Part shown: piece after piece, positions 1 through 20,436 of the stretch
Layout of the letters: each line of letters opens with the position of its first letter
Position numbering within the stretch: position 1 is the stretch's first letter
Notes under the pieces: model-generated
What the model was told of the DNA's origin: nothing
The model's input: only the letters and a program-made list of their open reading frames with translations
The model's database searches: none
Translations under genes and position numbers: made by a program
IMG/VR virus record: IMGVR_UViG_2690316086_000007
Location: 1 to 20,436 of that record
Direction: 5' to 3' (one strand)
From: a virus
Taxonomy: Duplodnaviria > Heunggongvirae > Uroviricota > Caudoviricetes
DNA length: 20,436 bases

Positions 1-73
1 CATCCTGACTTTCCAGAACCATACGAATCGCCCGCTGACGGACTTCGGGGGAAAAACGAGTATTTTTAGTCAT
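1..73 (-). CDS. IS3-family transposase OrfA, N-terminal 24 codons only (partial, runs off window)
   Basis: Minus-strand ATG at 71-73 preceded by GAGG RBS; translation MTKNTRFSPEVRQRAIRMVLESQD. It differs from the right-hand copy at two residues (I/V, D/G). Confidence 0.8.
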   Translation of the reverse strand, partial: MTKNTRFSPEVRQRAIRMVLESQD

Positions 74-127
74 CCTGTTTACCTCTTTCTCAGGGAGTTT
101 AGTCTCCAGGATTTCCGGGGCGGTTCA
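1..127 (-). mobile_element. IS3-family insertion sequence (IS629/IS3411-like), partial: terminal inverted repeat plus 5' end of orfA; element continues beyond window start
   Basis: Reverse complement of 1-127 reads TGAACCGCCCCGGAAATCCTGGAGACTAAACTCCCTGAGAAAGAGGTAAACAGGATG..., which is also found in direct orientation at 20310-20436. The terminus TGAACCGCCCC and the OrfA N-terminus MTKNTRFSPEVRQRA match the IS629-type IS3 family as I recall it. Confidence 0.85.
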
Positions 128-217
128 CAACGCGCCATCCGTTACTACCTTGAGGCAGACAAAAAGGCTCTGGAAGAACAGGAAGCGAAGGAGGAAGCCT
201 TTTTCGCACAATCCACC

Positions 218-2851
218 GTGGGTAAAAAACTCATGGCATCCCTTGAGGAAGCCGGACAGCGTGAAAAGCTGGCACAAAGCATCATCAGCAAGCGTCAGGC
301 AACAGAACAAGACCCGGTGGCCCGTGCTTTTGCCACACTGAAGGTGCTTCCCGTTTATCTGCGTGAACCTCTGAGCCGCCACCTCTCTTTCCTGCGCAAA
401 AAACAGGAAGCCGATCGCCAGAAAGGCAAAAAGAGCTGGCAGGCTGAACGCTACGCGCGCGGAACCCTGCGCAAAATATTCGAACGTCTGGACCGCACCG
501 ATCACCGCTGGCTGACACCGGGTTATCGCTCCCTTGCCGGACGCGAACGCCTGGACGATTTGCTTTACCTGCCGCAGCTCAACAAACACCAGATACAGAC
601 GCTGGCCACCATGACGGCGGCGATGTTCAGCAGCACCTTCGAAAAACTCTGCGATGGCTTTGGCGCGACTGATGGCGAACTGACCATGGATGTAACGCTG
701 AAGGCGTATCAGATGCTGGCCCGCATGGCGTTACACCTGCACGCCATGCCTCCACATTATGACGCACTGACAACAGACAAAGACCGGAGGAACGAACCGG
801 ACACGGAGCTGCTGCCGGGCGCAATCCTTCGCCTGACCTGTGCGGAATGGTGGAAACGCAAACTGTGGCTGTTACGTTGCGAGTGGAGAGAAGAACAACT
901 CCGCGCCGCCTGTCTGGTTTCCAGAAAAACATCACCCTATCTGAGCCAGGACGCGTTAAGCGAGTTTCGCGCACAGCGCGAGAAAACACGCGATTTCCTG
1001 AAAAGTTTCATGCTGGAAAATGAAGACGGGTTCACGATTGATCTCGAGACAGTGTATTACGCGGGAGTAAGTAACCCGGTTCACCGTAAGGCAGAAATGA
1101 TGGCCACCATGAAGGGGCTGGAACTTCTGGCCGAAGCCCGTGGCGACAGAGCGGTGTTTCTGACTGTCACCTGCCCGTCAAAATACCACGCAACAACGGA
1201 GAACGGTCATCCGAATCCCAAATGGAACGGGGCCACTATGCACGACTCCAGCGATTACCTGGTTAACACGTTTTTTGCGGCGGTCCGCAAAAAACTGAAC
1301 CGCGACGGCCTGCGCTGGTATGGCATCCGCACGGTGGAGCCTCATCATGACGGCACGGTGCACTGGCACATGATGGTTTTTGCTCATCCTGACGAGATTG
1401 TAACCATCGTGTCCCACGTCTGCGATATTGCCATTCAGGAAGACCGCCACGAGCTGGGCAATGACATAACTCCGCGTTTTAAGGCGGAGTACGTCGACGG
1501 CTCAAAAGGCACGCCAACCAGCTACATCGCCACCTACATCGGAAAGAACCTGGACAGCCGCGCCGTGGATGGCATCGACCCGAAAACGGGCAAGCCACGC
1601 GTTGACCACGAAACAGGTAAATCAATGGCCGAGAGCGTGGAGCGCGCCATCGGCTGGGCGCGCCTTCACCGGGTCCGTCAGTTCCAGTTCTTTGGCATCC
1701 CCTCCCGTCAGGTGTGGCGTGAACTGCGCCGCCTTGCCAGCCAGATGGCACGCAATCCGGAAGGCCCGCAACGGCTGAAAGATGATGCAATGGATGCGGT
1801 ACTCGCTGCCGCCGATGCCGGGTGTTTTGCCACCTACATTGAAAAACAGGGTGGCGTGCTTGTTCCACGCAAGGACTACCTGATTCGCACCGCCTACGAC
1901 CTCGCAGATGAGCTGAACGATTACGGCGAACAGAGCGTACAGATTTACGGGATCTGGTCACCACTCATCGGGGAATCCTCCCGTGTGTGCACGCATCCGG
2001 ATAACTGGAAGCTGGTAAGACGTAAACCAGAACCGGAAGACAACGCCCACGAAAATGGTTTTGACCTTCAGGGCGGCCCTGCCGCCCCTTGGACTCGTGG
2101 CAATAACTGTCCCCGTGTACAGGAAACGGACAACAACGGGACAGAACAGCCGGAAGAACGGCCAGCACCGTGGCCGCAGCTTCCTGACGGCGTTGAAGTG
2201 AACGAATGGATGCATTCACTGAAACGGCACGAACGCCGGGCGCTGATGCGTTCGCTTCGTGACAAACAGGCAAAAAACAGCAGCGATGAAATGCAGAACT
2301 GGACACAGAGCCGCAAACAGCCACAGCCTTTGCCTGATAACCACGAGTTACTCGCTAAAGAATGGCGGGAGTCTGCTGAATCTCTCGGCCTGCATATTGG
2401 TGAACAGCAGATGCAGCACCTGTTACGGGGCGGCAGCCTGTACGTTGACGGCAGCATCATTGCACCGCAGGGATTTGAAATTGTACGCAAACCGGATACC
2501 CGCCCGGACAGCCAAATCACGCAGCTCTGGCAGCGCCTGAGCCGTAATCACGGCGTAAGCAGCACGGAGATCCGCCATAACCCGGTCGCCAGCTATCTGG
2601 AACAGCTGGGGGCATCAGACCCCGAAGCCGCCGCACGTCTGGTATCCACACTTCAGCAGGACCAGAACACCATGCCCACCCCCGTTACCGTGCTTTCTGA
2701 CATGCTGCGCGCCATCCGTGACGCAGAGCACGCACAGAGAATCAGTGAAACCACTGAACGCGCCCACCGCAAAGCAGACCTGCTGCGGGGTAGCCTGACC
2801 AGTGGAAACAAAAAAACAGACAGAAACGGGATTCACAAATCCCGTAAATGA
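218..2851 (+). CDS. A: Rolling-circle replication initiation endonuclease, P2 gpA family
   Basis: 877-aa ORF with motifs TVTCPSKYH, VEPHHDGTVHWHMMVF (HUH-type), YIATYIGKNLDS and GWARLHRVRQFQFFGIP, collinear with P2 gpA as recalled. Start is uncertain (GTG 218 or ATG 233), and the frame stays open upstream to the IS junction at 128. Confidence 0.85.
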   Translation: MGKKLMASLEEAGQREKLAQSIISKRQATEQDPVARAFATLKVLPVYLREPLSRHLSFLRKKQEADRQKGKKSWQAERYARGTLRKIFERLDRTDHRWLTPGYRSLAGRERLDDLLYLPQLNKHQIQTLATMTAAMFSSTFEKLCDGFGATDGELTMDVTLKAYQMLARMALHLHAMPPHYDALTTDKDRRNEPDTELLPGAILRLTCAEWWKRKLWLLRCEWREEQLRAACLVSRKTSPYLSQDALSEFRAQREKTRDFLKSFMLENEDGFTIDLETVYYAGVSNPVHRKAEMMATMKGLELLAEARGDRAVFLTVTCPSKYHATTENGHPNPKWNGATMHDSSDYLVNTFFAAVRKKLNRDGLRWYGIRTVEPHHDGTVHWHMMVFAHPDEIVTIVSHVCDIAIQEDRHELGNDITPRFKAEYVDGSKGTPTSYIATYIGKNLDSRAVDGIDPKTGKPRVDHETGKSMAESVERAIGWARLHRVRQFQFFGIPSRQVWRELRRLASQMARNPEGPQRLKDDAMDAVLAAADAGCFATYIEKQGGVLVPRKDYLIRTAYDLADELNDYGEQSVQIYGIWSPLIGESSRVCTHPDNWKLVRRKPEPEDNAHENGFDLQGGPAAPWTRGNNCPRVQETDNNGTEQPEERPAPWPQLPDGVEVNEWMHSLKRHERRALMRSLRDKQAKNSSDEMQNWTQSRKQPQPLPDNHELLAKEWRESAESLGLHIGEQQMQHLLRGGSLYVDGSIIAPQGFEIVRKPDTRPDSQITQLWQRLSRNHGVSSTEIRHNPVASYLEQLGASDPEAAARLVSTLQQDQNTMPTPVTVLSDMLRAIRDAEHAQRISETTERAHRKADLLRGSLTSGNKKTDRNGIHKSRK

Positions 2852-2952: not shown

Positions 2953-3912
2953 ATGAAAATTTGTATCGACGACGGCTCCACCAACATCAAGCTGGCATGG
3001 GCTGAGAACGGCGAACGCCGCAACGCCATCAGCCCGAACAGCTTCAAGTCGGAATGGTCTGCGCCGTTCGGTGGCACGCAGCCCGCGAACTACATGCTTG
3101 ATGGCGTGCGCTATGGTTTTGATCCGGTCAGCGATCGCTTTGTCCAGACGACCGACACGCAATACCAGTACAGCGATGTGAATGTCATTGCCATTCATCA
3201 CGCACTGGTCAAATCAGGCATCACGCCACAGGAGGTGGATGTGGTTGTCACCCTGCCACTGAGCGAGTATTTCGACACAAACGCACAGCCGGATATGGCC
3301 AACATCAGCCGCAAAAAATCGAACGTTATGCGCCCGGTGGAGTACCAGAACGGCGAAGCATTCACTATCCGTAACGTACGGGTTATGCCTGAATCCATTC
3401 CGGCTGGCTTTAAAGCACTGGCTGACATGAGTCCGTTTGAATCCCTGCTGATTGTGGATTTAGGCGGAACCACACTGGATGTGGCAAAGGTTCAGGGGCA
3501 ACTGGCAGGTATCAGCCAGGTGTTTTGCGATCCACACGTAGGCGTTTCCCTGATGGCCGATGCCGTACTGTCGGTGATGGCCACTAACGGTATGCGTACC
3601 AGTCACCACATCGCCAATACCATTATCGAACATCGCCATGATGAAGCCTGGTTGCGCCAGCACATCCACAATGACGCGCATTACGCCAGCCTGATGGCGG
3701 TTATTCGTGAAAAGGAAGAAACACTGAAACAACGCGTGATCCGCGCGCTGGCGGGCTTTTCGGGTTACGGGCGGGTGATGGTTGTCGGTGGCGGGGCGGA
3801 GATTGTGGCACCCGCTATCCGCGAAGCCTGCGGAGTTAATGCGACTTTCATCGCGGACGGGGTGCCACAGTTTGCTCTGGTTAATGGGCTGTACGCAATG
3901 GACAAGGAGTAA
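2953..3912 (+). CDS. parM: ParM/StbA-family actin-like segregation ATPase
   Basis: 319 aa; collinear similarity to plasmid R1 ParM as recalled (IDDGSTNIKL, ISPNSFK, YSDVNV..HHAL, VMPESIPAG, IDLGGTTLD, FSGY, VGGGAEI, LVNG). RBS AAGGA 8 nt upstream of ATG. Confidence 0.85.
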   Translation: MKICIDDGSTNIKLAWAENGERRNAISPNSFKSEWSAPFGGTQPANYMLDGVRYGFDPVSDRFVQTTDTQYQYSDVNVIAIHHALVKSGITPQEVDVVVTLPLSEYFDTNAQPDMANISRKKSNVMRPVEYQNGEAFTIRNVRVMPESIPAGFKALADMSPFESLLIVDLGGTTLDVAKVQGQLAGISQVFCDPHVGVSLMADAVLSVMATNGMRTSHHIANTIIEHRHDEAWLRQHIHNDAHYASLMAVIREKEETLKQRVIRALAGFSGYGRVMVVGGGAEIVAPAIREACGVNATFIADGVPQFALVNGLYAMDKE

Positions 3913-3916
3913 ACCA

Positions 3917-4228
3917 ATGACGACACCAACCAGACGGATAAGTTTCTATCTGAAGCCCGCCGCCGTCAAGAACGAAGGCGAAGCATGCGCCTGGCTGGAC
4001 AGCCTTACACCAGAAGCCCGCAAAAGTGGTCAACGCGTGGCTTTTCTGGCCGGACTGGCACTTATGAAAATTAATCCGGCAGAGGCTTACCGACTGGCTG
4101 CATGGGCTGACGATGAAGCGTTATCCCTGACACAAACCAGGACAGAACGCCCCGCATCACAGCCAGTATCAACCGCACAGATAACCAGTCAGATGGCCGG
4201 AAATATCCGGGCGTTATTTCCTGAATAA
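3917..4228 (+). CDS. parR: ParR/StbB-like partition adaptor (ribbon-helix-helix type)
   Basis: 103 aa from ATG 3917, 4 nt after the parM stop, with GGAG RBS. Similar to R1 ParR as recalled (ISFYLKP.., AFLAGLAL, C-terminal ..RALFPE). The longer ORF from 3782 overlaps parM and is rejected. Confidence 0.7.
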   Translation: MTTPTRRISFYLKPAAVKNEGEACAWLDSLTPEARKSGQRVAFLAGLALMKINPAEAYRLAAWADDEALSLTQTRTERPASQPVSTAQITSQMAGNIRALFPE

Positions 4229-4291: not shown

Positions 4292-4675
4292 ATGAGCGAA
4301 ATCAACTATCAGGCATTACGTGAACGTTATTCACCTGTGCCAGTACCGAAATGCCCTATTTGCGGCGAGGAAATGTCAATTCAGCGAATATCTGGAGCAC
4401 AGGTTGTTTATGCCTGCTCCGGTTATGGTGATGATGGAGATTTCAAAATTGGCCGAACTCTTGCCGACGAACATTATGAAAAATCACGCGTAACAGTGTT
4501 GGATGTCGGGAATCCTGAAGTATTGGCGCTACTTGATTGGCTGGAAACCAAAGACAACCGAATCGCTGAACTGGAAAAAATCGCCACTGACTATGCACTT
4601 AAATTACAGAAAGCACAGGACGCATTAAAGTACGCCGCTTTGCTGCATAGCAGGACAGCGCAGCTACAAGACTAA
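4292..4675 (+). CDS. Hypothetical protein with N-terminal Cys motif (CPICGEE..YACSGYG) and C-terminal predicted coiled coil
   Basis: 127-aa ORF with AAGAGA RBS-like sequence 8-9 nt upstream; lower GC than flanking phage genes. I recognise no homolog. Confidence 0.5.
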   Translation: MSEINYQALRERYSPVPVPKCPICGEEMSIQRISGAQVVYACSGYGDDGDFKIGRTLADEHYEKSRVTVLDVGNPEVLALLDWLETKDNRIAELEKIATDYALKLQKAQDALKYAALLHSRTAQLQD

Positions 4676-4766: not shown

Positions 4767-5297
4767 TTATTCAGCATCGTCTCGTGCAGTCTGTGCATAC
4801 GTCACAACAACGCCCAATGCATTAGTTTTCTTTTCAACATAGATAATATTGTCATATTCATAGTTACCATACGGATAGCAAATAAGAATATTTTTATGCA
4901 GATCGGGATCATCAACAAACGCTCCGGAACAGCTTCTTGAACTACCGGATGTATACTCATACGGTGCAACATATGGTGATGTTACTCCTGGTAAAAAATA
5001 AGTCACCATCATAAGAGGGATAATCAGGAATATCCCTGTAAGAATGCAAGAGCCAGCATAAACCTTCAGGTATTCCGACAGTCCTTTCCAGCCACTTTGC
5101 TTCACTACCCCCCTCTTCACCAGAAACAAGGAGAAGAAAAAGGACATACCCATACTACACAAGATGTAATAATTGGATATACGCGAATTAAGATATGTAA
5201 TCCTGTAGATATCTGCCCTCCACCAGTAAAAGAGGAAAATAATCCCTAGCACTGAAACAGTCATGCAAATCAAATAAGGATATGAATCTTTCTTCAT
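4767..5297 (-). CDS. Hypothetical integral membrane protein (3 predicted TM helices plus ~70-aa C-terminal domain), AT-rich cargo gene
   Basis: 176-aa ORF. Hydrophobic segments YLICMTVSVLGIIFLFYWW, YYILCSMGMSFFFSLFLV and SCILTGIFLIIPLMMVTYFL. Markedly AT-rich, with codon usage unlike the surrounding phage genes. Weak RBS. Confidence 0.5.
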   Translation of the reverse strand: MKKDSYPYLICMTVSVLGIIFLFYWWRADIYRITYLNSRISNYYILCSMGMSFFFSLFLVKRGVVKQSGWKGLSEYLKVYAGSCILTGIFLIIPLMMVTYFLPGVTSPYVAPYEYTSGSSRSCSGAFVDDPDLHKNILICYPYGNYEYDNIIYVEKKTNALGVVVTYAQTARDDAE

Positions 5298-5340
5298 GTC
5301 TTGCGCTCATTAAAATTTCCCTGCTACGAACAAATTTACC

Positions 5341-5826
5341 ATCCGTTTTTTGCGCAGAAAACAGCACGATGCACACTGCACGATAGTGCACAAATTTGCA
5401 CAATTTTTTTGAACGACTTTTTACCCTTCCGGCCCGCATGGCGGCTGGATCCGTCAAGGATCCGTGCGTGCACAAAAAAACGCGTTTTTTCTGCGCGCAG
5501 GTGACGGGGGAACAGCCCGCGTTTCAGGGGGTAAATAGCATTCCCTGAACGATGTCGCAGAGATACAACAGAATGGCTGTATTTCTCACGCTGAGCGTGA
5601 AAAAGACGTGAGGGCTTTTGATTTATGGGGTGAAAGGTAAGGCCGTCAAAATCGCACTGAGACGGCGAGAACATGCAGTCAACGCGGTGGGATTGCGTAA
5701 GAGTCTGACTGTCGATGGTGGCGATAAACTGGAAGGCGTCGTGAAATTATCTGACTGATACAGGAGCTGGAGAGTCGGGGCATAAATTTTTTATGCCCCG
5801 GCGAAGCAGCAGACAAGCGAAGCGCG
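5341..5826. other. Non-coding region between cargo slot and portal gene; expected location of the cos site and packaging signals by P2 synteny (exact cos not identified)
   Basis: No convincing ORF. Dense in direct and inverted repeats (TGCACA array 5364-5403; GGATCCGT x2 at 5447-5465; AAAAAACGCGTTTTTT palindrome 5474-5490; 11-bp-stem hairpin 5776-5800). In P2 the cos lies between old and Q. Confidence 0.4.
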
Positions 5827-6873
5827 TCAGGATGTGGGCTGGGTGTCTAACAGTGCGTAAGGGTTAAAGCGGATCACCTCTTCGCCAAGCCAGTCATTGA
5901 TGTGCTTCATGGCCTCCATGACGGGCATCAGCTCGTTAATTGCGTAAACCCGCGCGGCCTTCTCCACATCACCAAACGCACTTTTTTCGCCCGGCATCGC
6001 CCCCATCAGTTGCGGCGGAACGCGGTGCGCAGCCAGCACATCATCACGGGATGCCGCCTTAACATTCATGAACTCATCCTTTGCGGTGATCTGCTGGAAC
6101 GGCAAAATTTGCACCCCCTCTTTGCCCCCGTTGGGAGCATGGATGAGCACGTTTTTAAACGCACCACCACCACGCGCACCCTGTAACGTTTCTTTCAGGG
6201 AGTCCATGCTTTCGCGGTTTACCTGCGCTGCACCGATGTAGATGATGCACCCGGCGTGGGATCCATTGTCGTAATACAGTTTTCTGAACATGTCCGCCGA
6301 ATGAGACAGGCTGGCCGAGAGTAATGCGCCAAGATATTCCGGCATGCCGTAAATTTCCTGGTTAATGTCCGGATTCATCAGGTGGCACACTTTGCCAGGG
6401 CGAAACTGAAACGCGTCCTTGCCATCCTGCACATACCACCATGATTCAAGATCGCTTCCGCGTCGCATGTATTTCGCCAGTGCGTGCCGTAATTTAAGCG
6501 GTTCGCCGAGCATATTGCTTCGAAGCTCAAGGAATGCGTTACCGAACACAAACCAGTCCAGCGCCAGCGCCGAGAAATCCTGCCGGGAAAGCAGCGGGTG
6601 CGGGATGTAGCAACCGAGTAATACATTGCGCTTAAAGTAAAGCGCAGACTGATGCCAGGACGTTTGCCGGGCAGCTCTTGCCAGACCGTACCAGTCCACC
6701 GGGGTTTCATACCACCGCCCGTTATCAGCACAGTACATATTGTCCAGCAGGTCATGCCCGGTCAGGCGATAAGGACCATCAAATGTGAATGCACTGAGCG
6801 ATGATTCTTTCCTGAGCGCATCAGCGAGATCAATGCGTGAACTCATGCGCACTTTTTTATTTTTTCTGCTCAT
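5827..6873 (-). CDS. Q: Portal protein, P2 gpQ-like
   Basis: 348-aa ORF immediately downstream of and translationally coupled to the terminase gene (minus-strand TGATG overlap at 6871-6875); position and size match P2 Q. Confidence 0.8.
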   Translation of the reverse strand: MSRKNKKVRMSSRIDLADALRKESSLSAFTFDGPYRLTGHDLLDNMYCADNGRWYETPVDWYGLARAARQTSWHQSALYFKRNVLLGCYIPHPLLSRQDFSALALDWFVFGNAFLELRSNMLGEPLKLRHALAKYMRRGSDLESWWYVQDGKDAFQFRPGKVCHLMNPDINQEIYGMPEYLGALLSASLSHSADMFRKLYYDNGSHAGCIIYIGAAQVNRESMDSLKETLQGARGGGAFKNVLIHAPNGGKEGVQILPFQQITAKDEFMNVKAASRDDVLAAHRVPPQLMGAMPGEKSAFGDVEKAARVYAINELMPVMEAMKHINDWLGEEVIRFNPYALLDTQPTS

Positions 6874-8624
6874 CAGAACTCCATAACCGTGAAACGCTCG
6901 TTTTCTCCTTCGCCGCCAATCGGTTCGTTAATGACAGCAAGCATGGTTGCCCACGCAAGGTCGCCGTGGCTGATCCCCCTCGCGCGATCCGTTTCGTAAG
7001 TGATAAAGCCGCCCGGTGTTTTCACCTTACGCACGGCGTTAAAGGCCGCGACCAGCTCGCGTTCGGCGCGATCGTATTCCCACCGCCCGGCACGCATTAT
7101 TTGCAGCATTTTCAGTACCAGCGACCGTTTTGATGACAGCGTGAAGGTGTACGGAATAGCAGCAGGGAAAAACCGTTTCACTATCTGATAAACAGCCTCC
7201 CCGTTCCCGCCCGTCACATCAATGCCGATGTGTTCCACGTTGTAGCGATACGTGAACTCTTCAATGACTCTGGCCTGTTCTTCAAACTCCAGCCCCTGAA
7301 CGCGTCGCGTCTCCACCGTTCGAAAACGGCCACCAGGAACAGCCGGAGGAACCACCACGGACACAGCGCCGCTGTCGCCGTTGCCACTGCTGCCGTTTGC
7401 GTCATACCCAATCCATACCGGACGATTCCCCATCGGTCGGGGAGCAAAAGGTTTCCAGTCTTTCCAGTCGTCGTATCCGTCAACACCGCAGCCAATCAGG
7501 ATATTCAGGTTAAATGCCGATTCCCCTTCGCGAACAAACTCACACATATAGAGATTGAGGAACTCGTCTTCGGTGTTTTCATCACGGATTTCGTCAATAT
7601 CGGTGTGTTTCCAGCCGTGATTAACCACATCTTCCAGCGTGACAATTTGTCGCCACGTCCGGTCAGGGCAGATAAGCCCGTTATGCAGCGTTTTCCAGTC
7701 CACAGAAAAACGCTGGCGTTTATGCGAGGCCTTTTTCTCGTTCCAGCGGTCGCCGTTCCAGTAGGCGTATGCCTCGTGCGTTTCGGTGGATGGCGTGGAG
7801 AAGTAGGTGCGCCGCAGTCCGCTGAGGGTTGCCATAGCGCCAGCTACCTTGCGCAGTTCAGCAAAGCGACTGACCCAGAAAAATTCATCAAAATAAAAAT
7901 TGCCCGTATAGGACTGTGCCGACGCAGCAGAAGTGCCGAGAAAATGCAGCTCTGCGCCGTTGGAGAGGATGATTTTATCGCCCCCTTTCAGCTCCACATC
8001 AACTTCAGCCGCGGCCTTCTGAATAATGCTTTTAAACTGGAACGCCTGACGACGCGACGCAGACAAAAAAATCTGGTTACGCTGGTAAGGTTGCGCCACA
8101 TCGTCACGCAGCGCCATCAGCAGAGCTTCCTGTGCAAAATACCAGGTCGCCCCAATCTGTCGGGATTTCAGGATCATCCTGTTACGTATCCCGGCTTCCC
8201 TGCAAAGGGTCAGGGAATCAAACCAGCCCCGCTGATGCCACTCCAGCCTGCTGATGATTTTTTCCCGCAGTGCGGCAATCTGTTCCGGCGTGAAATGATT
8301 TTTGAGTTTTTTCGCCCGGCCTTTCTTTCCTGTGACCGTCGCATCCGGCTGGCCATCATGCAGTTTTTTAAGCTGCCGGGTCAGCAGGTCTATTTCCTTA
8401 AAGTCACCGCCTGTTTTATTCTGTTTTTCAGTAAGCTGGATGAGGCGCGCATCGATGGACTGCGTGACACGCTGCACGGGTGGCGTTTCATCCCACTGGT
8501 CGCGTTTTTTCCACGCATAAATCGTGTTCGGGTTTATTCCCATCAGACGTGATATTTCTGCGGGCGGATAACCCTGCCAGTAAAGTTGCCGCGCACGCTG
8601 GCGCACAAAAGCGTCCTGAATCAT
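6873..8624 (-). CDS. P: Terminase large (ATPase) subunit, P2 gpP-like
   Basis: 583 aa; N-terminal HTH-like segment (PPAEISRLMGINPNTIYAWKK), Walker-A-like ILKSRQIGAT, size and position as in P2 P. Confidence 0.88.
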   Translation of the reverse strand: MIQDAFVRQRARQLYWQGYPPAEISRLMGINPNTIYAWKKRDQWDETPPVQRVTQSIDARLIQLTEKQNKTGGDFKEIDLLTRQLKKLHDGQPDATVTGKKGRAKKLKNHFTPEQIAALREKIISRLEWHQRGWFDSLTLCREAGIRNRMILKSRQIGATWYFAQEALLMALRDDVAQPYQRNQIFLSASRRQAFQFKSIIQKAAAEVDVELKGGDKIILSNGAELHFLGTSAASAQSYTGNFYFDEFFWVSRFAELRKVAGAMATLSGLRRTYFSTPSTETHEAYAYWNGDRWNEKKASHKRQRFSVDWKTLHNGLICPDRTWRQIVTLEDVVNHGWKHTDIDEIRDENTEDEFLNLYMCEFVREGESAFNLNILIGCGVDGYDDWKDWKPFAPRPMGNRPVWIGYDANGSSGNGDSGAVSVVVPPAVPGGRFRTVETRRVQGLEFEEQARVIEEFTYRYNVEHIGIDVTGGNGEAVYQIVKRFFPAAIPYTFTLSSKRSLVLKMLQIMRAGRWEYDRAERELVAAFNAVRKVKTPGGFITYETDRARGISHGDLAWATMLAVINEPIGGEGENERFTVMEF

Positions 8625-10719: not shown

Positions 10720-10736
10720 AGTAACGGAGAGAACAA

Positions 10737-11537: not shown

Positions 11538-11552
11538 CGACTGACCCCGTCA

Positions 11553-11625: not shown

Positions 11626-11639
11626 CAGGAGTGAACCCC

Positions 11640-12134: not shown

Positions 12135-12334
12135 TGAAAGTGAAGGCACTGGAAGGCGACACCGTGGATTCGCTCTGTTTCCGGTACTACGGCACGACGC
12201 AGGGCGTCACCGAAAAGGTGCTGGATGCCAACCCCGGACTCTGTCAGCAGGTATTTCTGGACGCCGGGCAGGAAGTTGAGATGCCGGAGCCGGAGAAGAA
12301 GAAACGAGAAATGATTCAGTTGTGGGGGGAGTAG
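12134..12334 (+). CDS. X: Tail protein X, P2 gpX-like
   Basis: 66 aa, MKVKALEGDTVDSLCFRYYGTTQGVTEKVLDANPGL, close to P2 gpX (MKTFALQGDTLDAICVRYYGRTEGV...) as recalled. Confidence 0.8.
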   Translation: MKVKALEGDTVDSLCFRYYGTTQGVTEKVLDANPGLCQQVFLDAGQEVEMPEPEKKKREMIQLWGE

Positions 12335-12336
12335 CA

Positions 12337-13049: not shown

Positions 13050-13453
13050 AGCTCTGGCCCACGCTTGGCGTCGCTTTCCTTCTGATTGCCGGATGGGGAA
13101 CATCCATGCGTCTGTCGTGGTCGCTGGGCCGGGAGAACGCCAGAAACGAAGCGCAGGCCAGCACCCTGAAAAGTACCGCCGACACCCTGAATATCATCAG
13201 CGCCGGGGTACAGGATATGCAGCAGGTGCTGGCGCAACTCCGCGTGGAAAATCAGCAACGCAATCAGGACGGAGAGGTAAGACGTGAACAGCTACGCAAC
13301 GATATTGCAAAAGATGAATGCGCCCACGCTTTGCCTGACGCTCGTTTTACTGACAGGCTGCGCAGGCACGCAGAACGCGCCACTGCCAGCGCCGTCAGTC
13401 CGGCTTATACCGCAGACGCTGACCATACCGGTAACGCCTCCCCCCTTCCCTGA
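13046..13453 (+). CDS. i-spanin (LysB/Rz-like)
   Basis: ATG 13046 overlaps the endolysin stop (ATGA); N-terminal TM segment LWPTLGVAFLLIAGW followed by a coiled-coil-like region. The longer ORF from 12902 is rejected. Confidence 0.65.
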   Translation: MKLWPTLGVAFLLIAGWGTSMRLSWSLGRENARNEAQASTLKSTADTLNIISAGVQDMQQVLAQLRVENQQRNQDGEVRREQLRNDIAKDECAHALPDARFTDRLRRHAERATASAVSPAYTADADHTGNASPLP

Positions 13454-13604
13454 TACTCCCACATGGGGAAATCTCGGTATATGGGGCGACCGCCTTCTGG
13501 ATGCACTGGAAACCTGTAACGCGGATAAACGGGCCATTGAATTATTGGAACAGCGCAGGCTGCAACGACTGAACAACGAGGATAACAACCATGCTGAAAA
13601 CTGA
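13311..13604 (+). CDS. o-spanin lipoprotein (LysC/Rz1-like), overlapped in a different frame with the i-spanin gene
   Basis: Signal peptide with lipobox LLTGC, proline-rich mature part (PLPAPSV..PVTPPPFPDTP); starts inside the i-spanin ORF and extends past it. Start may instead be GTG 13284. Confidence 0.6.
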   Translation, partial: KMNAPTLCLTLVLLTGCAGTQNAPLPAPSVRLIPQTLTIPVTPPPFPDTPTWGNLGIWGDRLLDALETCNADKRAIELLEQRRLQRLNNEDNNHAEN

Positions 13605-14058
13605 TTCCCTGCGTGAAGCCATGACCCGTTCATGCCGATGGTGTCAGGCCAACCCGGAAAAATTCACCATTTTCGTGGAAAGCGGCAACATTGAAACGAC
13701 CGGAGAAACGCCCTCGTTTGTTTACCGCTATCAGATGGTGATGTTTGTCATGGATTACGCCGGGGAGCTGGACGACCTCACGCTGCCGCTACTGGCGTGG
13801 TTATCCGAAAATCAGCCACAGTTGTTGCTCAATCCGGAGCGTAATCAGGACATCAAATTCTCCGCCGTTATCAATGACGATGACAGCGCCGATCTCCTGT
13901 TTACGCTCCCCCTGCGGGAACGCGTTCGCATCACGCGCAGCAGTCAGGGCACACCGCAGGCAGAACACCTGCCTGAGCCAAAACCCCGCCTGCCATCTTC
14001 CGAAGGCGACTGGTCGCATGTATTCCAGGATGTGACGTGGGGTGAAAGCGATGGATAA
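13591..14058 (+). CDS. R: Tail completion protein, P2 gpR-like
   Basis: 155 aa; MLKTDSLREAMT.., LPLLAWLSENQP, FSAVINDDDSADLLFTLPL parallel P2 gpR as recalled. Confidence 0.8.
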   Translation: MLKTDSLREAMTRSCRWCQANPEKFTIFVESGNIETTGETPSFVYRYQMVMFVMDYAGELDDLTLPLLAWLSENQPQLLLNPERNQDIKFSAVINDDDSADLLFTLPLRERVRITRSSQGTPQAEHLPEPKPRLPSSEGDWSHVFQDVTWGESDG

Positions 14059-14686
14059 GGCATTCACCCGCGTGGATGAAACCTTTGATGCCATCCGCGA
14101 CAGCCTGAATCAGCAGGCCATCAATAACATCGCCAGAAAGCTGGCACAGGATTTACGCCGCGCCCAGCAGGCGCGTATCCGGTCACAGAAAGCGCCGGAC
14201 GGGACCGCGTGGACACCACGCAGACGCCGCGTAACCCGGATACAGGAACGCATTCGCTTTATCTGGAATAACGAAGCACGCACGCTGAAAAACTGGCATC
14301 ACGACACGGGGAAATACGGGCGAACCATTACCGGGTGGGATGAGGATAAAAACAATATCCGCACGTTTTACCGGGATGACATCGACCGTTTTCTGGAAAT
14401 ACGCACCCGGCGCATCAACCAGGACAGCACAAAGCGCGTCCCCATGTTCGTAAAACTGCGCACCGCCCGCTACCTGAAAGCCCGTGCAGATGCTTCCGGT
14501 GTGACGGTGGGTTACAGCGGCGTGGCCGCACGTATTGCCCGCGTTCATCAGTTCGGTGAGCGCGATCAGGTTGCGCCGGGCATTTTCACCGATTACCCGG
14601 TACGTGAGCTGTTGGGTATCAGCCAGGCAGATGAGCGCCTGATTTATAACACGGTGCTGGGCCGGATTGCGGAGGCTGTACGGTGA
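14051..14686 (+). CDS. S: Tail completion/virion morphogenesis protein, P2 gpS-like (longer than P2 S)
   Basis: ATG 14051 just before the R stop; positional equivalent of S between R and V. Start could be GTG 14042. Confidence 0.6.
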   Translation: MDKAFTRVDETFDAIRDSLNQQAINNIARKLAQDLRRAQQARIRSQKAPDGTAWTPRRRRVTRIQERIRFIWNNEARTLKNWHHDTGKYGRTITGWDEDKNNIRTFYRDDIDRFLEIRTRRINQDSTKRVPMFVKLRTARYLKARADASGVTVGYSGVAARIARVHQFGERDQVAPGIFTDYPVRELLGISQADERLIYNTVLGRIAEAVR

Positions 14687-15264
14687 GCGCAGAACTCATG
14701 CGACTGCTGAGCAACATCATCCGTACCGGGATCATCTCTGAAGTTGATGAGGAATCCTGGTGCGTGCGCGTTCGCAGCGGCGAACTGGAAACAGGCTGGC
14801 TGCGCTGGAACACCACGCGCGCGGGAGCCTTCAATGTGTGGCTGCCGCCATCACCAGGCGAACAGGTGGTAATTGCCTGCATTGGCGGCAACCCGGAAAC
14901 CGCCATGATAATTGGCAGCCTGTGGAGTGATGCCAGTCCGGCCCCCGGCAAAAGCCTGAACGAAATCGTGATCAGCGCGCCGGACGGCGCGGTGTTCCGC
15001 TACGACGCGGACGCAGGCGCACTGAGCGCCAGCGGCATGAAAACGGCCACTTTACAGGCATCCGTCAGCGTGAAACTGGATACGCCCGTCGTGGAATGCA
15101 CAAACCTTCTGAGAACGGCGACGCTTGACGTCATAAAAGGAGGAAAGATGAGCGGCAATATCACGCACAGCGGCGGCAACTTCACCTCAAACGGCATTAC
15201 CGTGCATACGCATAAACACGGTGGCGTGAAAGGCGGCAGCGATTCGACAGGAGGCCCGCAGTGA
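14683..15264 (+). CDS. V: Baseplate spike protein, P2 gpV-like
   Basis: GTG start overlapping the S stop (GTGA). IIRTGIISEVD, PSPGEQVVIA, VVECTNLL, IKGGKMSGNITHSGG and HTHKHGG are collinear with P2 V as recalled. Confidence 0.85.
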   Translation: MSAELMRLLSNIIRTGIISEVDEESWCVRVRSGELETGWLRWNTTRAGAFNVWLPPSPGEQVVIACIGGNPETAMIIGSLWSDASPAPGKSLNEIVISAPDGAVFRYDADAGALSASGMKTATLQASVSVKLDTPVVECTNLLRTATLDVIKGGKMSGNITHSGGNFTSNGITVHTHKHGGVKGGSDSTGGPQ

Positions 15265-15611
15265 CAACCCGCTACACAGGAATGAATCCGGACGGGACGG
15301 GAAACCTGAACGATATGGAGCACCTGAAACAGTCAGTCAGGGATATCCTGACCACCCCGCTGGCAAGCCGGGTTATGCGACGGGAATATGGCAGCCTTGT
15401 GCCTGATTTGATTGACGAACCCATGAATAACACCACGCGTCTGCAATGCATGAGTGCTGCCGTGATTGCACTGACACGATGGGAACCCCGCATTGCCCTG
15501 GATGCCATCGACGTTGTCTGGAAGGCAGGAGGCCGCGCCGGGGTGACGCTGTCGGGCACTGTCATGCAGACCATGCAGAATGTTGAATTAACCATCACGC
15601 TGAGAGAGTAA
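15261..15611 (+). CDS. W: Baseplate wedge protein, P2 gpW-like
   Basis: 116 aa; MTTRYTGMN.., ..PLASRVMRREYGSL match the P2 W N-terminus (MTARYLGMN..RVMRRDYGSL) as recalled. Confidence 0.85.
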   Translation: MTTRYTGMNPDGTGNLNDMEHLKQSVRDILTTPLASRVMRREYGSLVPDLIDEPMNNTTRLQCMSAAVIALTRWEPRIALDAIDVVWKAGGRAGVTLSGTVMQTMQNVELTITLRE

Positions 15612-15614
15612 ATC

Positions 15615-16511
15615 ATGCCTGCTGTTGACCTTTCCCAGTTACCGGACCCCGCCATTATCGCGGAGCCTGATTTTGAGGCAATTCTGGCTGACACAAAGGC
15701 CATGATGATTGCGGCTTATCCCGCCGAACAGCGTGAAGCCGTCTCCGCCGCGCTGGAGCTGGAATCGGAACCCCTGAACGTTATCGCCCAGATAACAGCG
15801 TTTCGTGAAATGCTGTTACGCCAGCGGGTCAATGAGGGGGCACGGGCCTGCATGTTAAGCCACAGCACCGGGACAGACCTGGACAACCTCGCGGGCAATA
15901 TGAACACAAAGCGCCTGACCATCACTCCGGCAACGGATACCACCGACGCGGTGATGGAGAGTGACACCTCACTGAGACTGCGGGCGCAGCGGGCGTACGA
16001 CGGCCTGAGTGTTGCTGGCCCGTCAGGTGCATACGAGTATTTTGCCCGCAGCGCCAGCGGTCTGGTGCGTGATGCGCGGGCCATCAGCCCGTCTCCGGCA
16101 AATGTGACGGTTTCCATCCTGTCCACTGAAGGCGACGGCACAGCAACGGAGGCGTTGCTTAATACCGTTCGCGCCGTTCTGAATGCAGAGGATACCCGTC
16201 CGGTGGCCGACCGCCTGACCGTACAGAGTGCCAGAATCGTGACATGGCGGCTGAATGCAAAACTGTACTTTTACCCCGGCCCGGAATCCGAACCTATTCT
16301 GGCTGCGGCGGAATCGTCGTTCAGGAAGTGGCTGGCTGAGCAGGGGCTTATCGGTCAGGACGTGGCGTTGTCCGCCATTGCTGCCGCACTGCATGTGCAC
16401 GGTGTGCAACGCGTGGAGATAATCGAACCCACACAGAATATGGCCATCAGCGACATACAGGCGGCGCGCTGTGAGTCGTTCACCATCAGCGAAGGTGGGC
16501 GCAATGAGTAA
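15615..16511 (+). CDS. J: Baseplate assembly protein, P2 gpJ-like
   Basis: 298 aa; LESEPL, RQRVNE, KRLTITPA, AVMESDT, GLSVAG, SPSPA, RPVADRLTVQSA, YPGPESEPI and GVQRVE are collinear with P2 J. Confidence 0.85.
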   Translation: MPAVDLSQLPDPAIIAEPDFEAILADTKAMMIAAYPAEQREAVSAALELESEPLNVIAQITAFREMLLRQRVNEGARACMLSHSTGTDLDNLAGNMNTKRLTITPATDTTDAVMESDTSLRLRAQRAYDGLSVAGPSGAYEYFARSASGLVRDARAISPSPANVTVSILSTEGDGTATEALLNTVRAVLNAEDTRPVADRLTVQSARIVTWRLNAKLYFYPGPESEPILAAAESSFRKWLAEQGLIGQDVALSAIAAALHVHGVQRVEIIEPTQNMAISDIQAARCESFTISEGGRNE

Positions 16512-17034
16512 TTCGCTGTTACCACCATCAGCCAGCAATTTCATGCGTTGTGCCGAAGCCGTCGGAACGCGCATTACAGACATTCCGGTAGACCTCAACA
16601 CGCTGTGGTCGCCGGACACATGCCCGGTGCATCTGCTGCCTTATCTCGCCTGGGCATTTTCCGTTGACCGCTGGGATCGCAACTGGCCGGAAGAGACAAA
16701 GCGACAGGTTATTCGTGATGCATGGCTGATACACCGACACAAAGGGACCATCAGCGCACTGCGCCGGGCCATTGAGCCGCTGGGATACCTCATTCGTGTG
16801 TCTGAGTGGTGGGAGTTCGGCGGAGAACCGGGAACATTTACCGTTGAAGTCGGCACGCTGGACAGTGGCGTGACGGAGGAAATGTATCTGGAAATGGAGC
16901 GGTTGATTGCTGATGCCCGCCCGGTCAGCCGCCACATGACAGGGCTGAATATCATTCAGGAGATCCCGGGAGATATTTTCGCAGCGGCAGCAACTTACGA
17001 CGGTGAAGTCATTACCATCTATCCGGACGATTAA
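16504..17034 (+). CDS. I: Baseplate/tail-fibre attachment protein, P2 gpI-like
   Basis: ATG 16504 overlaps the J 3' end; [49 protein letters not shown] are collinear with P2 I. The longer ORF from 16471 is rejected. Confidence 0.8.
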
Positions 17035-17036: not shown

Positions 17037-19037
17037 ATGAGTACCACAACACGAAAATTTAAAACCATTATCACCGATACGGGTGCCAAAAAATTAGCGC
17101 AGGCAGCCGCACCAGATGGTAAACCCGTCCGCCTGACACATATGGCCGTGGGTGACGGCGGCGGTACTTTACCCACGCCAGACAGTAAGCAGACCCGTCT
17201 TGTGCGTGAGGTGTGGCGACATACCGTTAATCGCGTCTTCCTGGACGCAACACATCAGAACCGCATTATTGCGGAGCTGGCTATTCCTCCAGAAACGGGC
17301 GGATTCTGGATCCGGGAAATTGGTGTGTTTGATGAGCACGGCGATTTAATCGCGGTAGGCAATACTGCCGAAAGTTACAAGCCAGCCGTTGCCGAAGGGT
17401 CCGGTCGTGCACAGACATTTCGCACCATTCTGACCGTATCCAGCACTGCCACCGTGGCACTTACCGTGGATAACACCATGGTGATGGCCACAGTGGATTA
17501 CGTGGATGACAAACTGAAAGAGCATGAACAGTCACGACGTCACCCGGACGCCTCGCTGACCGCAAAAGGCTTTGTTCAACTCAGTAGCGCCACTAACAGC
17601 GTGTCTGAAACACAAGCTGCAACGCCGAAAGCAGTAAAGGACGCGTATGACCTTGCTAACGGGAAATATACTGCGCAGGATGCCAGCACGACGCGAAAAG
17701 GCCTTGTTCAGCTCAGTAGCGCCACCAATAGCGATTCTGAAACGCTGGCGGCAACGCCAAAGGCGGTAAAGGCAGCATATGACCTTGCTAACGGGAAATA
17801 TACCGCACAGGACGCTACCACAGAGCGAAAAGGTCTTGTCCAGCTCAGTAGTGCCACCAACAGCGATTCTGAAACGCTGGCGGCAACGCCAAAGGCGGTA
17901 AAGGCAGCATATGACCTTGCTAATGGCAAATACACCGCACAGGATGCAACAACAGCACAAAAAGGGATAGTCCAGCTTACTAGTGCAACCAACAGCACGT
18001 CTGAAACGCTTGCCGCGACTCCGAAAGCGGTGAAAGCTGCTAATGACAATGCAAACGGGCGTGTGCCCTCTGGACGTAAGGTTAATGGCAAACCACTGAC
18101 CAATGATGTCAATGTTACATCACAGGATATTTTTAACGATCAGAGTATTGAGATTGGTGCAAACCAGAATCTGGATAATTACAAAACGCCGGGGCTGTAC
18201 CATCAGCCTGCGAATGCCAATACAAGTGCAGCGCTGAAATACCCAGAGAATCTTGCCGGTACACTGGTTGTGCTTAAAAGTGCCGGGATAACACAGATTT
18301 ACTATGTGTATAACACATCCAGAAGCTATACCCGCAGCCAGTACTCAACGGGTGACTGGACAGCATGGACGCCGCAGGATTCATTTCCTGTAGGTGCGGC
18401 GATTCCGTGGCCTTCTGATTCAGTGCCTACAGGCTATGCCGTTATGCAGGGGCAGACTTTTGATAAAACAACCTATCCCCTGCTTGCAGCAGCTTATCCC
18501 TCTGGTGTACTCCCCGATATGCGTGGCTGGACAATCAAGGGCAAGCCCGCAAGTGGTCGAGCCGTATTGTCTCAGGAACAGGATGGCATTAAATCGCACA
18601 CCCACAGTGCCAGCGCATCCAGTACGGATTTGGGTACGAAAACCACATCGTCGTTTGATTACGGTACTAAATCAACGAATAACACAGGTGCACATACCCA
18701 CAATGTATCTGGTACTGCAAATAGTGCTGGCGCACATACTCATACCGTTCCATTAAGGAGACCAAACAGTGGAGGTATGAATTTCGACTGGCTTGATGGT
18801 GCATCAAGTGGCACGGTCGTGGGGAATGGAACAGTGCCTTCTTCTGGTGCACACACCCACTCAGTATCAGGCACTGCTGCAAGTGCAGGGGCGCATGCAC
18901 ATACAGTTGGTATTGGCGCTCATACGCACTCTGTTGCGATTGGTTCACATGGACATACCATCACCGTTAACGCTGCTGGTAACGCGGAAAACACCGTTAA
19001 AAACATCGCATTTAATTATATTGTGAGGCTTGCATAA
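17037..19037 (+). CDS. H: Tail fibre protein, P2 gpH-like N-terminus with a His-rich (HxH) C-terminal tip
   Basis: 666 aa; N-terminal ~190 aa collinear with P2 H ([62 protein letters not shown]). C-terminus carries repeated GAHTH/GAHAH/GSHGH motifs and ends ..[11 protein letters not shown]. Confidence 0.9.
17565..18062 (+). repeat. In-frame tandem repeat (4 units of 132 bp / 44 aa, last unit truncated) inside tail-fibre gene H
   Basis: Units start at 17565, 17697, 17829 and 17961 (KG[FLI]VQL[ST][31 protein letters not shown]..). Units 2 and 3 are near-identical at the nucleotide level. P2 H has two such units as recalled. Confidence 0.85.
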
Positions 19038-19654
19038 TGGCATTCAGAATGAGTGAACAATCACGTACTGTAAAAATTTATAACCTGCTGGCCGGAACTA
19101 ATGAGTTTATTGGTGAAGGTGACGCATATATTCCACCTCATACAGGGCTGCCAGCTAATTCTACAGATATCGCCCCACCGGAAATTCCTGCTGGCTTTGT
19201 GGCAGTTTTTAACAGTGAAAATGAATCGTGGAATATTGTTGAAGACCATCGTGGTAAAACGGTCTATGACGTGGCCTCGGGGGACGCGTTGTTTATTTCT
19301 GAACCCGGACCGCTACCAGAGAATGTCACCTGGTTGTCGCCAGCAGGGGAGTATCAGAAGTGGGACGGCGTATCCTGGGTGAAGGATGAGGAAGCAGAAA
19401 AACTGTTTCGGATACGGGAAGCGGAAGAGAAAAAGGCAAGGTTGATCCAGGAGGCAACAGATAACATCGCAATTCTGCAGGATGCAGTTAATCTTGAAAT
19501 AGCAACAAACGAGGAAAATTCACAACTGGATTCCTGGAGAAAATACAGAGTATTAGTGAGTCGAATTGACACCAGTACAGCTCCGGATATCGTATGGCCA
19601 GAGCTGATGAATCAGGGTTATGTGCGGGAGGACGAGCAGATAACTTCAGACTGA
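19037..19654 (+). CDS. G: Tail fibre assembly chaperone, P2 gpG/Tfa-like
   Basis: ATG overlaps the H stop (TAATG); 205 aa; positional and compositional match to Tfa-family chaperones that follow tail-fibre genes. Confidence 0.75.
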
Positions 19655-20181
19655 AATTTAGTGATGAATGTTGAATCATCAGGAATATCATGCAATACCA
19701 ATGCATGAGCACCTATTGTGACATTGTTTCCTATACGCACTTTGCCACCAAGAATGGTGGCATTACAACCAATGGTCACATTATGTCCTATAACAATATC
19801 CATATCATTAAAATCACCACGTAGCCCAATAGTTACCCCTGGTTTTATTGAACAATTTTCACCGATGGTTACTTTGTGACCGATAACAACACTATTGAGA
19901 TAAGAAATATCAAAGCCTTTCCCTATATTTACAGTTAAAGGGACTGTTACATTATATTTATCAAGAATGAAACGTTCTATTTTCCCCGCAATCTTCCGAC
20001 AGTATCCGCCTTTATCAAAAAGGTATTTGGCTATGCGCCACCAAAATAAATAACGAACTCTTCTATGTTTTATTGCGCGAACAATTGCCTTTCGCCAGGA
20101 GAAAGGACGCTCGCTACCGATTACTTCATAGTGAATACAGTCTTTAAGTTCATTAATATTCATATCTCTATTATTTAGCAT
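19618..20181 (-). CDS. Hexapeptide-repeat (left-handed beta-helix) acetyltransferase, WcaF/WbbJ/CysE-like; AT-rich moron
   Basis: 187 aa; repeated [LIV]G..X hexads ([56 protein letters not shown]) and N-terminal FWWR segment as in small sugar O-acetyltransferases. About 35% GC against ~55% for the phage genes. 3' end overlaps G convergently by 37 bp. Confidence 0.75.
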
Positions 20182-20309
20182 AAGATAATCATGTGACCAA
20201 TTATTGTAATAATTTTAATGGTATGTTTCTACTGGCTATCCAGCGCGTCTGATATCCGGTAACAAATCGTTAACACTGGTGCAATCAAATGGTGAGTGTT
20301 AAGACTGGC

Positions 20310-20436
20310 TGAACCGCCCCGGAAATCCTGGAGACTAAACTCCCTGAGAAAGAGGTAAACAGGATGACTAAAAATACTCGTTTTTCCCCCGAGGTCCGTC
20401 AACGGGCAGTTCGTATGGTTCTGGAAAGTCAGGGCG
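20310..20436 (+). mobile_element. IS3-family insertion sequence (IS629/IS3411-like), partial: terminal inverted repeat plus 5' end of orfA; element continues beyond window end
   Basis: TGAACCGCCCCGGAAATCCTGGAGACTAAACTCCCTGAGAAAGAGGTAAACAGGATGACTAAAAATACTCG...; inverted copy of 1-127, with 6 mismatches clustered in the last ~45 bp. Confidence 0.85.
20364..20436 (+). CDS. IS3-family transposase OrfA, N-terminal 24 codons only (partial, runs off window)
   Basis: ATG 20364 with GAGG RBS; MTKNTRFSPEVRQRAVRMVLESQG, which matches the canonical IS629-type OrfA N-terminus as recalled. Confidence 0.8.
   Translation, partial: MTKNTRFSPEVRQRAVRMVLESQG

Follow-up and report, generated by a model that had tools for sequence, protein, structure and literature searches.

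Insertion of IS629/IS1203 elements into prophages of enterohaemorrhagic Escherichia coli (EHEC) was reportedly described by Ooka et al. in 2009. The transposase of the IS3 family is a DDE (rve) enzyme encoded by orfA and orfB, which are joined via a -1 programmed frameshift, and members of the family transpose via a circle joining the IRL and IRR of one element. IS3411, an isoform of IS629, flanks the citrate transposon Tn3411. Subtypes of IS629 are 55-60 nt apart, 62% of the copies reside within prophages or prophage-like elements, and the target-site duplications (TSDs) are 3-4 bp long (Rump et al. 2011, PMC3271280). In Shiga-toxin E. coli (STEC), including O121:H19, the IS-excision enhancer (IEE) promotes the excision of IS3-family elements as well as deletion of the flanking DNA (PMC9397093, PMC9943667).

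The locus described here, a stretch of 20,436 nt (hereafter the window), resembles the IS629/IS1203 insertions in EHEC prophages (PMC3271280) in the element itself (1310 bp, TGAACCGCCCC termini, orfA and orfB with a programmed frameshift, a 3-bp TSD), in the habit of landing in prophages, and in the coexistence of two subtypes ~60 nt apart in one genome. As in EHEC, the insertions appear to inactivate genes and to break short-read assemblies. Only the sites are new, namely codon 32 of the replication gene A and the spacer between an acetyltransferase gene and gpU, and among complete genomes both occur in a single O121-type genome. It is very likely that the two elements entered a resident prophage by independent, simple insertions, and the window ends are probably k-mer breaks. 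This kind of event is already known, and there is no sign of flipping or of a mobile unit. The likeness to IS-flanked inversions and composites (of the Tn3411 or Tn10/Tn5 type) is one of layout only, a related pair of inverted IS copies around genes; unlike those systems, the locus has no shared outer TSD, each copy has its own TSD, the context is native, the two subtypes differ and one copy is disrupted. The host lineage and the IS family are those in which IEE acts, but neither excision nor deletion was seen here. IEE is the most plausible route by which the insertions might be lost in future, or phage DNA beside them deleted. The locus thus adds another case of IS629-group elements decaying STEC prophages and fragmenting short-read assemblies, and means little beyond bookkeeping.

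The P88-like prophage and its IS-free relatives

The whole window was found in the complete genome of strain ML775 (NZ_CP193495) at 99.95% identity, with 1 mismatch and one 10-bp indel. As part of the explanation outlined above, we are highly confident that the window holds the central 20.2 kb of a P88-like prophage (genus Xuanwuvirus, P2-like Peduoviridae) in an O121-type STEC. The gene set and order are of the P2 type (A; Q P, O N M L X, lysis, R S V W J I H G; FI FII E T U; D; ogr), and the identity to P88 is 97% over 80% of the window. The features of the window are as follows.

1-127, minus strand: IRL end of an IS1203-type (IS629 subtype I-like) element of the IS3 family, IS nt 1-127 including the first 24 orfA codons; full copy in ML775
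128-2851, plus strand: 3' part (codons 32/33 to end) of the P2-type replication endonuclease gene A, from tblastn and the empty site
2953-3912, plus strand: ParM actin-like segregation ATPase (Pfam StbA_N, 1.6e-81; ParM C-terminal domain, 1.3e-68)
3917-4228, plus strand: ParR-like partner (Plasmid_stab_B, PF10784, 1.9e-25)
4292-4675, plus strand: Ead/Ea22-like protein, incomplete according to PGAP (C-terminus missing)
4767-5342, minus strand: hypothetical gene, annotated as frameshifted in ML775 and the O121 genome
5827-8624, minus strand: portal Q (5827-6873) and large terminase P (6873-8624), from annotation
8779-12134, plus strand: head genes, namely scaffold O, major capsid N, small terminase M and head completion L
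12134-13604, plus strand: tail protein X and lysis cassette (holin, M15 endolysin, DUF2570/LysB-like, LysC)
13591-17034, plus strand: tail completion and baseplate genes R, S, V, W, J, I
17037-19654, plus strand: tail fibre H and tail fibre assembly protein G
19618-20181, minus strand: hexapeptide-repeat (LbetaH) acetyltransferase, a moron
20310-20436, plus strand: IRL end, IS nt 1-127, of a second IS629 subtype; full copy in ML775

The coordinates of the head genes are those of the L001 annotation shifted by -12010. A Pfam search gave no match for the hypothetical gene at 4767-5342. The ParM gene also occurs in phage P88. Tail fibre H carries a 132-bp Phage_fiber_2 repeat in 3.6 copies (17564-18036). 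The GC content of the acetyltransferase moron is 36.9%, versus 53.7% for the block, and 128 nt of its upstream region with promoter-like hexamers have been kept.

The prophage lies between yecA and the tRNA-Leu/Cys/Gly cluster, and runs on past both IS copies, into the early genes on the left and into the tail operon U-T-E-FII-FI, D and ogr on the right. In O121:H19 genomes, positions 128-20309 of the window are present at 99.9% with the same gene order, both sites are free of IS, and the flanks lead into the same prophage genes on both sides. The gene order of phage P88 is also the same (A, parM, parR, Q, P, O, N, M, L, X, lysis, R-G, a cargo slot and the leftward tail operon U-T-E-FII-FI). 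Two points distinguish the locus from P88: its cargo slot holds the hexapeptide acetyltransferase, where P88 has an invertible tail-fibre segment with a DNA invertase, and its gene A is broken by an IS.

Two IS629-group copies and their target sites

Positions 1-127 (reverse complement) and 20310-20436 of the window aligned without gaps, both starting with the IS terminus TGAACCGCCCCGGAAATCCTGGAG (5'-TG). The two are the same IS end in inverted orientation, and both present the IRL, the orfA-proximal end, directed into the block, as had been proposed from the sequence alone. In a self-comparison of the window the repeat was recorded as I1 (124 nt, 97%); the IS portion is exactly 127 nt at each end, and the flanks diverge directly past nt 127 and nt 20310. 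The sequence-only reading had also given ~85 bp of identity followed by six differences. The six mismatches stand (IS nt 84, 93, 99, 100, 125 and 126), but the identical stretch is 83 nt (IS nt 1-83). orfA starts at IS nt 55, and 24 codons are visible per end (MTKNTRFSPEVRQRAIRMVLESQD on the left, ...AVRMVLESQG on the right), and the two amino-acid changes noticed earlier are I16V and D24G.

With 127 nt of each IS in the window, the full-length status of the copies is known only from ML775, the complete genome nearly identical to the source genome, in which the TSDs, the orientation and an ISCro1 insertion were read as well. The left IS in ML775 is an intact element of 1310 bp (L001 10818-12127) with an intact transposase and the structure CAA|IS|CAA. 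PGAP names it 'IS3-like element IS1203 family transposase', and it is 100% identical to many copies elsewhere that are annotated as IS1203 family. The right insert is 4017 bp (L001 32320-36336) with the structure GGC|IS::ISCro1|GGC; both ends of the IS are present, but a 2699-bp ISCro1 (IS66 family) with the TSD CATCAACA interrupts it at IS nt 1032. Reconstructed without ISCro1, the right copy matches copies in O157:H7 genomes at 100%, among them a Sakai copy annotated as IS629/IS1203. Both copies are 1310 bp long; their orfA encodes 108 aa and their orfB frame is open. PGAP marks a 'programmed frameshift' and the AL1L pseudoknot. The IRR is TGAACCGCCCCGGGTTTCCTGGAG, which matches the IRL at 21/24 positions. 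The copies thus show what defines the IS629/IS1203 group of the IS3 family (TG...CA terminal inverted repeats, ~1.3 kb with orfA/orfB, a 3-bp TSD), and each shares 95% or more of its nucleotides with a named element, with annotated genome copies rather than ISfinder as the reference. The assignment to IS629-like elements that had been made from their ends is supported.

The left and right copies differ at 64/1310 positions (95.1% identity, 4.9% divergence), with 4/108 amino acids different in OrfA and 10/317 residues in the translated orfB frame. The longest perfect run between them is 266 nt (IS nt 255-520), and further runs are 83, 86 and 60 nt. Since each copy has a 100% match among canonical copies from unrelated genomes, neither is a recombinant of the two, and by sequence each is a pure subtype. 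The 64 differences fit the known IS629 subtypes (PMC3271280), which bears out the earlier suggestion of independent insertions rather than a duplication.

The left IS interrupts gene A itself after codon 32; in L002, the empty site is 96 nt into the ORF. The earlier placement of this IS upstream of A is wrong. The right IS occupies the intergenic spacer that separates the acetyltransferase gene from gpU, where the tail operon has its distal end. The interruption thought to precede the sheath and tube genes is thus located in this spacer, and the sheath and tube genes themselves are uncut. In O121 RM8352 the empty sites read ...CTGCAA/CGCG... and ...CTGGC/CACTT..., respectively.

Separate insertions, inversion and composite transposition

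In the scenario that we favour, two members of the IS629 group would have transposed separately into a resident prophage by the normal copy-out-paste-in route of the IS3 family. An IS1203-type copy would have entered gene A after codon 32 with its own 3-bp target duplication, and a copy of the second subtype would have entered the spacer between the acetyltransferase moron and gpU, also with its own 3-bp duplication, to be hit later by ISCro1. The prophage would consequently be unable to replicate, and the IS copies would not form a functional unit.

The sequence-only reading took the pair as bracketing the whole block. This seems to be largely a product of assembler stops, as the prophage continues beyond both IS copies. 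The window would be a contig from a short-read de Bruijn graph with a largest k of 127; 127 is the largest k of SPAdes. If both IS types are multi-copy in the genome, they are impassable for the assembler, and the contig would stop one k-mer (127 nt) into each because of this. The left 127-mer does occur twice in ML775, the second copy at yeeJ, and the IS half of each junction query has about 10 matching places there. No second copy of the right 127-mer was found within the ~144 kb of ML775 examined. The k=127 origin is probable for the window ends, and for the right end it is a prediction. A repeat of exactly 127 nt at both contig ends should accordingly be taken for a signature of the assembler rather than for biology, and the warning that the IS repeats could confuse assemblies was well founded, as the window ends exactly 127 nt into each IS. 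Contig ends that are repeat overlaps of k-mer length are also places where assemblers can mis-join, and one may ask whether the IS ends were mis-attached, with no IS beside this phage DNA. Both junctions recur at 100% over 160 nt apiece in an independent complete genome, together with full-length IS copies and their TSDs, which makes such an artefact extremely unlikely.

Inversion deserves attention, as the copies are both inverted and homologous (1310 bp, 95.1%), and their 266-nt identical run is enough for RecA-dependent homologous recombination to flip the 20.2-kb block, whether in the past of this prophage or as a population polymorphism. Inversions between repeats have been documented in O157:H7, the window looks alike in either orientation, and the source isolate may carry either. 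Against this, the orientation in ML775 is ancestral, both TSDs are intact and matched, and both IS copies are pure subtypes without left/right chimeras. The 5% divergence probably lowers recombination, judging from what is known of homeologous recombination, and a switch would have no apparent selective or regulatory logic. Neither the inverted orientation nor a footprint of exchange (swapped TSDs, chimeric repeats) was found in ML775. Comparison with the IS-free relatives leads to the same answer, as the block is colinear with the O121:H19 prophage and P88. The next gene to the acetyltransferase was a P2 tail-operon gene in 10/10 long contigs, being gpU in 9/10; in L012, which has a deletion, the acetyltransferase adjoins a truncated gene after the tube gene. 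Inverted (early-gene) neighbours of the identical acetyltransferase were absent among the 10 long-contig contexts shown. We therefore reject an inversion history for ML775, where the block is colinear with O121 and P88, the TSDs are matched and the IS copies are non-chimeric, and consider a flip of the block, which had been raised earlier, very unlikely overall. It is similarly improbable that the block is a live polymorphism in the source strain, flipping via the 266-nt core or being excised or deleted by the IS629 transposase and IEE. If that were true, the linkage of parMR and the acetyltransferase to the prophage early promoter would be changed, or the cargo lost.

The same pair of copies could in principle mobilise the phage block as a single unit, with parMR and the acetyltransferase among its genes. 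A cargo lies between two copies of one group, the transposase of the left copy is intact, the outer ends in ML775 are both IRR-type with the conserved terminus TGAACCGCCCCGG, and IS3411/Tn3411 is a precedent. Nevertheless, a TSD of its own accompanies each IS. The outer flanks, CAA for the left copy and GGC for the right, share no duplication, and no single TSD around the whole unit was seen in ML775. The block sits in its native prophage place, colinear with IS-free relatives, the right copy is disrupted by ISCro1, and an IRR-IRR unit of ~25.5 kb would serve very poorly as a substrate, judging from knowledge of IS911 and the IS3 family. Each junction occurred in 1/5426 complete E. coli genomes, this being ML775 in the native context, and the block junctions were found nowhere else among the 5426. 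Composite transposition was rejected on this distribution, and the composite element suggested by the sequence-only reading has a practically negligible probability. Two findings that the earlier reading had itself named as speaking against its view were both made in ML775: different IS types (64/1310 differences) and intact TSDs around each copy (CAA/CAA and GGC/GGC). The latter argue against an inversion or composite history alike. Separate insertion accounts for these observations, and the two rare sites (1/5426) could serve as lineage markers in IS-typing of an O121 sublineage.

Gene A and the state of the prophage

A acts in cis in P2-type phages and is essential to them. Owing to the split of gene A after codon 32, the prophage is very likely to be replication-defective, and the phage has presumably lost viability, in agreement with the earlier expectation of a defective prophage. 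Prophage-calling tools should not score it as intact. The prophage is also ~5.3 kb oversized, with a length of ~40.6 kb.

tblastn with the P88 gpA aligned aa 27-927 at 90%. PGAP flags gene A as 'frameshifted' in the O121 genome and ML775, which corresponds to an A7 versus an A6 run. The A7 run, near 2810-2816, alters the last ~19 aa of the gene A product; it is uncertain whether gene A was already dead through this run before the IS arrived, as the change is not clearly inactivating. Several of the acetyltransferase contexts have decayed in other ways, by deletions and by an IS66 in gpD.

The IS ends and the prophage locus that carries them

Window positions 1-127, once reverse-complemented, start TGAACCGCCCCGGAAATCCTGGAGACTAAACTCC, as do positions 20310-20436 on the forward strand, and the two align without gaps, confirming that the same IS629-group end lies inverted at the two window ends, each copy having its orfA-proximal end (IRL) directed into the phage block. 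A repeat finder returned the inverted arms as 4-127 and 20310-20433 (124 nt, 97%), and the sequences beyond nt 127 and nt 20310 are unrelated, so that the IS portion is exactly 127 nt at each end. The ends are identical over IS nt 1-83, close to the ~85 bp given by the sequence-only reading, and differ at the six positions that it had counted (IS nt 84, 93, 99, 100, 125 and 126). The orfA frame starts at IS nt 55, and its 24 visible codons include the two amino-acid changes claimed, I16V and D24G.

Between the IS ends lie 20.2 kb from the middle of a P88-type, P2-like prophage (genus Xuanwuvirus). Phage P88 shares its gene order and aligns at 97% with 80% of the window. The block contains the following features:

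Early side of the block: replication endonuclease gene A, parM, a ParR-like gene and an Ea22-like remnant
Minus strand: portal and large terminase
Plus strand: scaffold, capsid, small terminase, L, X, lysis cassette, R, S, V, W, J, I, tail fibre H and assembly protein G
Block end, 19618-20309 including the spacer to the IS, minus strand: hexapeptide acetyltransferase, a moron

One complete genome, the chromosome of E. coli strain ML775 (NZ_CP193495), carries the entire window, both IS ends included; the only differences are a single mismatch and a 10-bp indel. At least nine O121:H19-type genomes (e.g., RM8352, NZ_CP028110) match window 128-20309 at 99.9%, with IS absent on either side, and the exact insertion sites were obtained by aligning the ML775 locus (L001) with the IS-free O121 locus. 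The left IS is 1310 bp long (L001 10818-12127) and has a CAA triplet on each side, a duplication of the one in the empty site, which reads ...GACCTGCAA/CGCGCC.... In gene A this triplet forms codon 32, and the IS cuts codons 1-32 off from the remainder. The right insert is 4017 bp long (L001 32320-36336) and lies between duplicated GGC triplets in the acetyltransferase-gpU spacer. The insert is an IS629-type element of 1310 bp into which, at nt 1032, a 2699-bp ISCro1 (IS66 family) has inserted, duplicating 8 bp (CATCAACA); this nested insertion inactivated orfB of the right copy. To the left of the left IS the prophage continues with early genes and the integrase, followed by yecA; to the right of the right IS it continues with gpU, T, E, tube and sheath (minus strand), then D, ogr, hok and a tRNA-Leu/Cys/Gly cluster. 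The prophage measures ~35.2 kb in O121 (from the 124-bp att repeat) and ~40.6 kb in ML775 with its inserts. The underlying biology is two IS insertions 20.2 kb apart within a 35-kb prophage.

The ML775 record is titled 'E. coli O103 strain ML775', while PGAP names an O121 family O-antigen flippase and polymerase in it (NZ_CP193495.1 1,888,361-1,903,174; L005 8361-23174), and the prophage with its flanks matches O121:H19 genomes at 99.9%. The sister record NZ_CP193494.1, 'O121 strain WL1277', has a 96.6% prophage variant also present in O103:H2 FWSEC0007. It looks as though these two records have had their serogroup labels exchanged.

Origin of the two copies

Once ISCro1 is taken out, the two ML775 copies can be compared over 1310 positions: 64 differ (95.1% identity), corresponding to 4 of 108 OrfA residues and, in the translated orfB frame, 10 of 317. 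Apart from nt 255-520, where a run of 266 nt is identical, the differences are distributed along the element. Many genomes contain copies annotated 'IS3-like element IS1203 family' that match the left copy at 100%; the right copy is matched at 100% in at least 25 O157:H7 genomes, among them by the ycgR copy of Sakai, which is annotated IS1203/IS629. Both copies are pure canonical subtypes, which means that neither arose by crossover between them. IS629 subtypes are 55-60 nt apart and coexist in one genome, 62% of IS629 copies lie in prophages or prophage-like elements, and their TSDs are 3-4 bp (PMC3271280); the ML775 pair fits this picture. The suggestion of independent insertions holds for ML775, given two pure subtypes, 64 differences and a TSD for each copy, and these insertions are a known, ordinary kind of event.

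Inversion of the block by recombination between the copies is physically possible, since they have the 266-nt identical run in common; for the source isolate it remains an unlikely possibility, as flipping would leave the window sequence unchanged. An inversion would pair CAA with the reverse complement of GGC around each IS, make both copies chimeric and place the acetyltransferase beside the 5' stub of A, none of which is seen in ML775, where the TSDs match and the block has the order of the IS-free O121 prophage and P88. The two findings that the sequence-only reading had named as refuting its proposal, ends of different IS types and an intact TSD at each IS, are both present in ML775. An exact-protein look-up in public assemblies listed ten long-contig contexts of the acetyltransferase; none has early genes next to it, and in all ten the neighbour is a P2 tail-operon gene, gpU in nine and a truncated gene after the tube gene in the deleted prophage L012. 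Nothing suggests that the block has been inverted, and the invertible unit that had been proposed is not borne out. The same applies to a composite mobile element: a composite transposon is expected to be flanked as a whole by one duplication and to occur outside its native context, but in ML775 the outer flanks are CAA (left) and GGC (right), separate TSDs of the two IS, and each IS-phage junction is present in only 1 of 5426 complete genomes.

The apparent bracketing of the whole block is mostly an assembly property: the two insertions are real, but the prophage continues past both. The largest k of SPAdes, and of pipelines built on it, is 127. With a de Bruijn-graph assembler at k = 127, a unique path meeting a repeat would end the contig with the first k-mer wholly inside the repeat, and exactly 127 nt of IS at both window ends is the pattern expected. 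The left 127-mer occurs a second time in ML775, in an IS1203 copy at yeeJ (L004 12963-13089), and for each junction query the IS half has ~10 matching places in this chromosome. No second copy of the right 127-mer was located in the portions of the ML775 chromosome read, so that the k-mer account of the right end is a prediction. The warning that the IS copies could confuse assemblies is thus illustrated by the window, which itself ends 127 nt into each IS.

Consequences for the phage and variation of the block

Gene A encodes the cis-acting replication initiator required by P2-type phages. The left IS splits this gene, and read-through rescue is not expected because its transposase reads away from the A remnant. 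The right insertion disrupts no ORF: it lies downstream of U, the gene with which the leftward tail operon ends, and is separated from the acetyltransferase start by 128 nt of upstream sequence, in which the promoter-like hexamers remain in place. All ML775 structural genes are annotated intact. We therefore infer that the prophage is most likely excision-competent but replication-defective and oversized, in agreement with the defect suspected from the window. PGAP flags A as frameshifted even without the IS because of a run of seven A at 2810-2816 (six in P88), also found in the IS-free O121 copy, which replaces only the last ~19 aa with 11 others.

The acetyltransferase is regarded as a moron because its GC content is 36.9%, against 53.7% for the block. 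It occupies the slot between G and U, where P88 instead has an invertible tail-fibre cassette with a DNA invertase; this interval is a variable cargo site in the P88-like group. A ParM/ParR-like plasmid-partition pair (2953-4228) lies immediately 3' of gene A in this integrating P2-like phage and is kept in P88 and relatives. In tail fibre gene H a 132-bp unit is repeated 3.6 times in tandem (84% matches; 17564-18036), corresponding to Pfam Phage_fiber_2 repeats, and the H proteins of relatives are 666, 729 or 885 aa long, lengths consistent with variation in repeat number. The 10-bp unit GCACAAATTT (~5360-5400), intergenic and upstream of the portal gene, has one copy fewer in the window than in ML775; the region upstream of the portal gene is that of cos in P2-type phages.

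In this host lineage the IS-excision enhancer promotes IS3-family excision and adjacent deletions (PMC9397093, PMC9943667), and these insertions would most realistically be lost in that way in future. Decay is common in this prophage family. Among other E. coli genomes with the same acetyltransferase, L012 has a decayed prophage with a large internal deletion and a gpA-tail-fibre fusion ORF of 1152 aa, L013 a decayed prophage with a parM-to-gpI deletion, and L011 an IS66 element in gpD.
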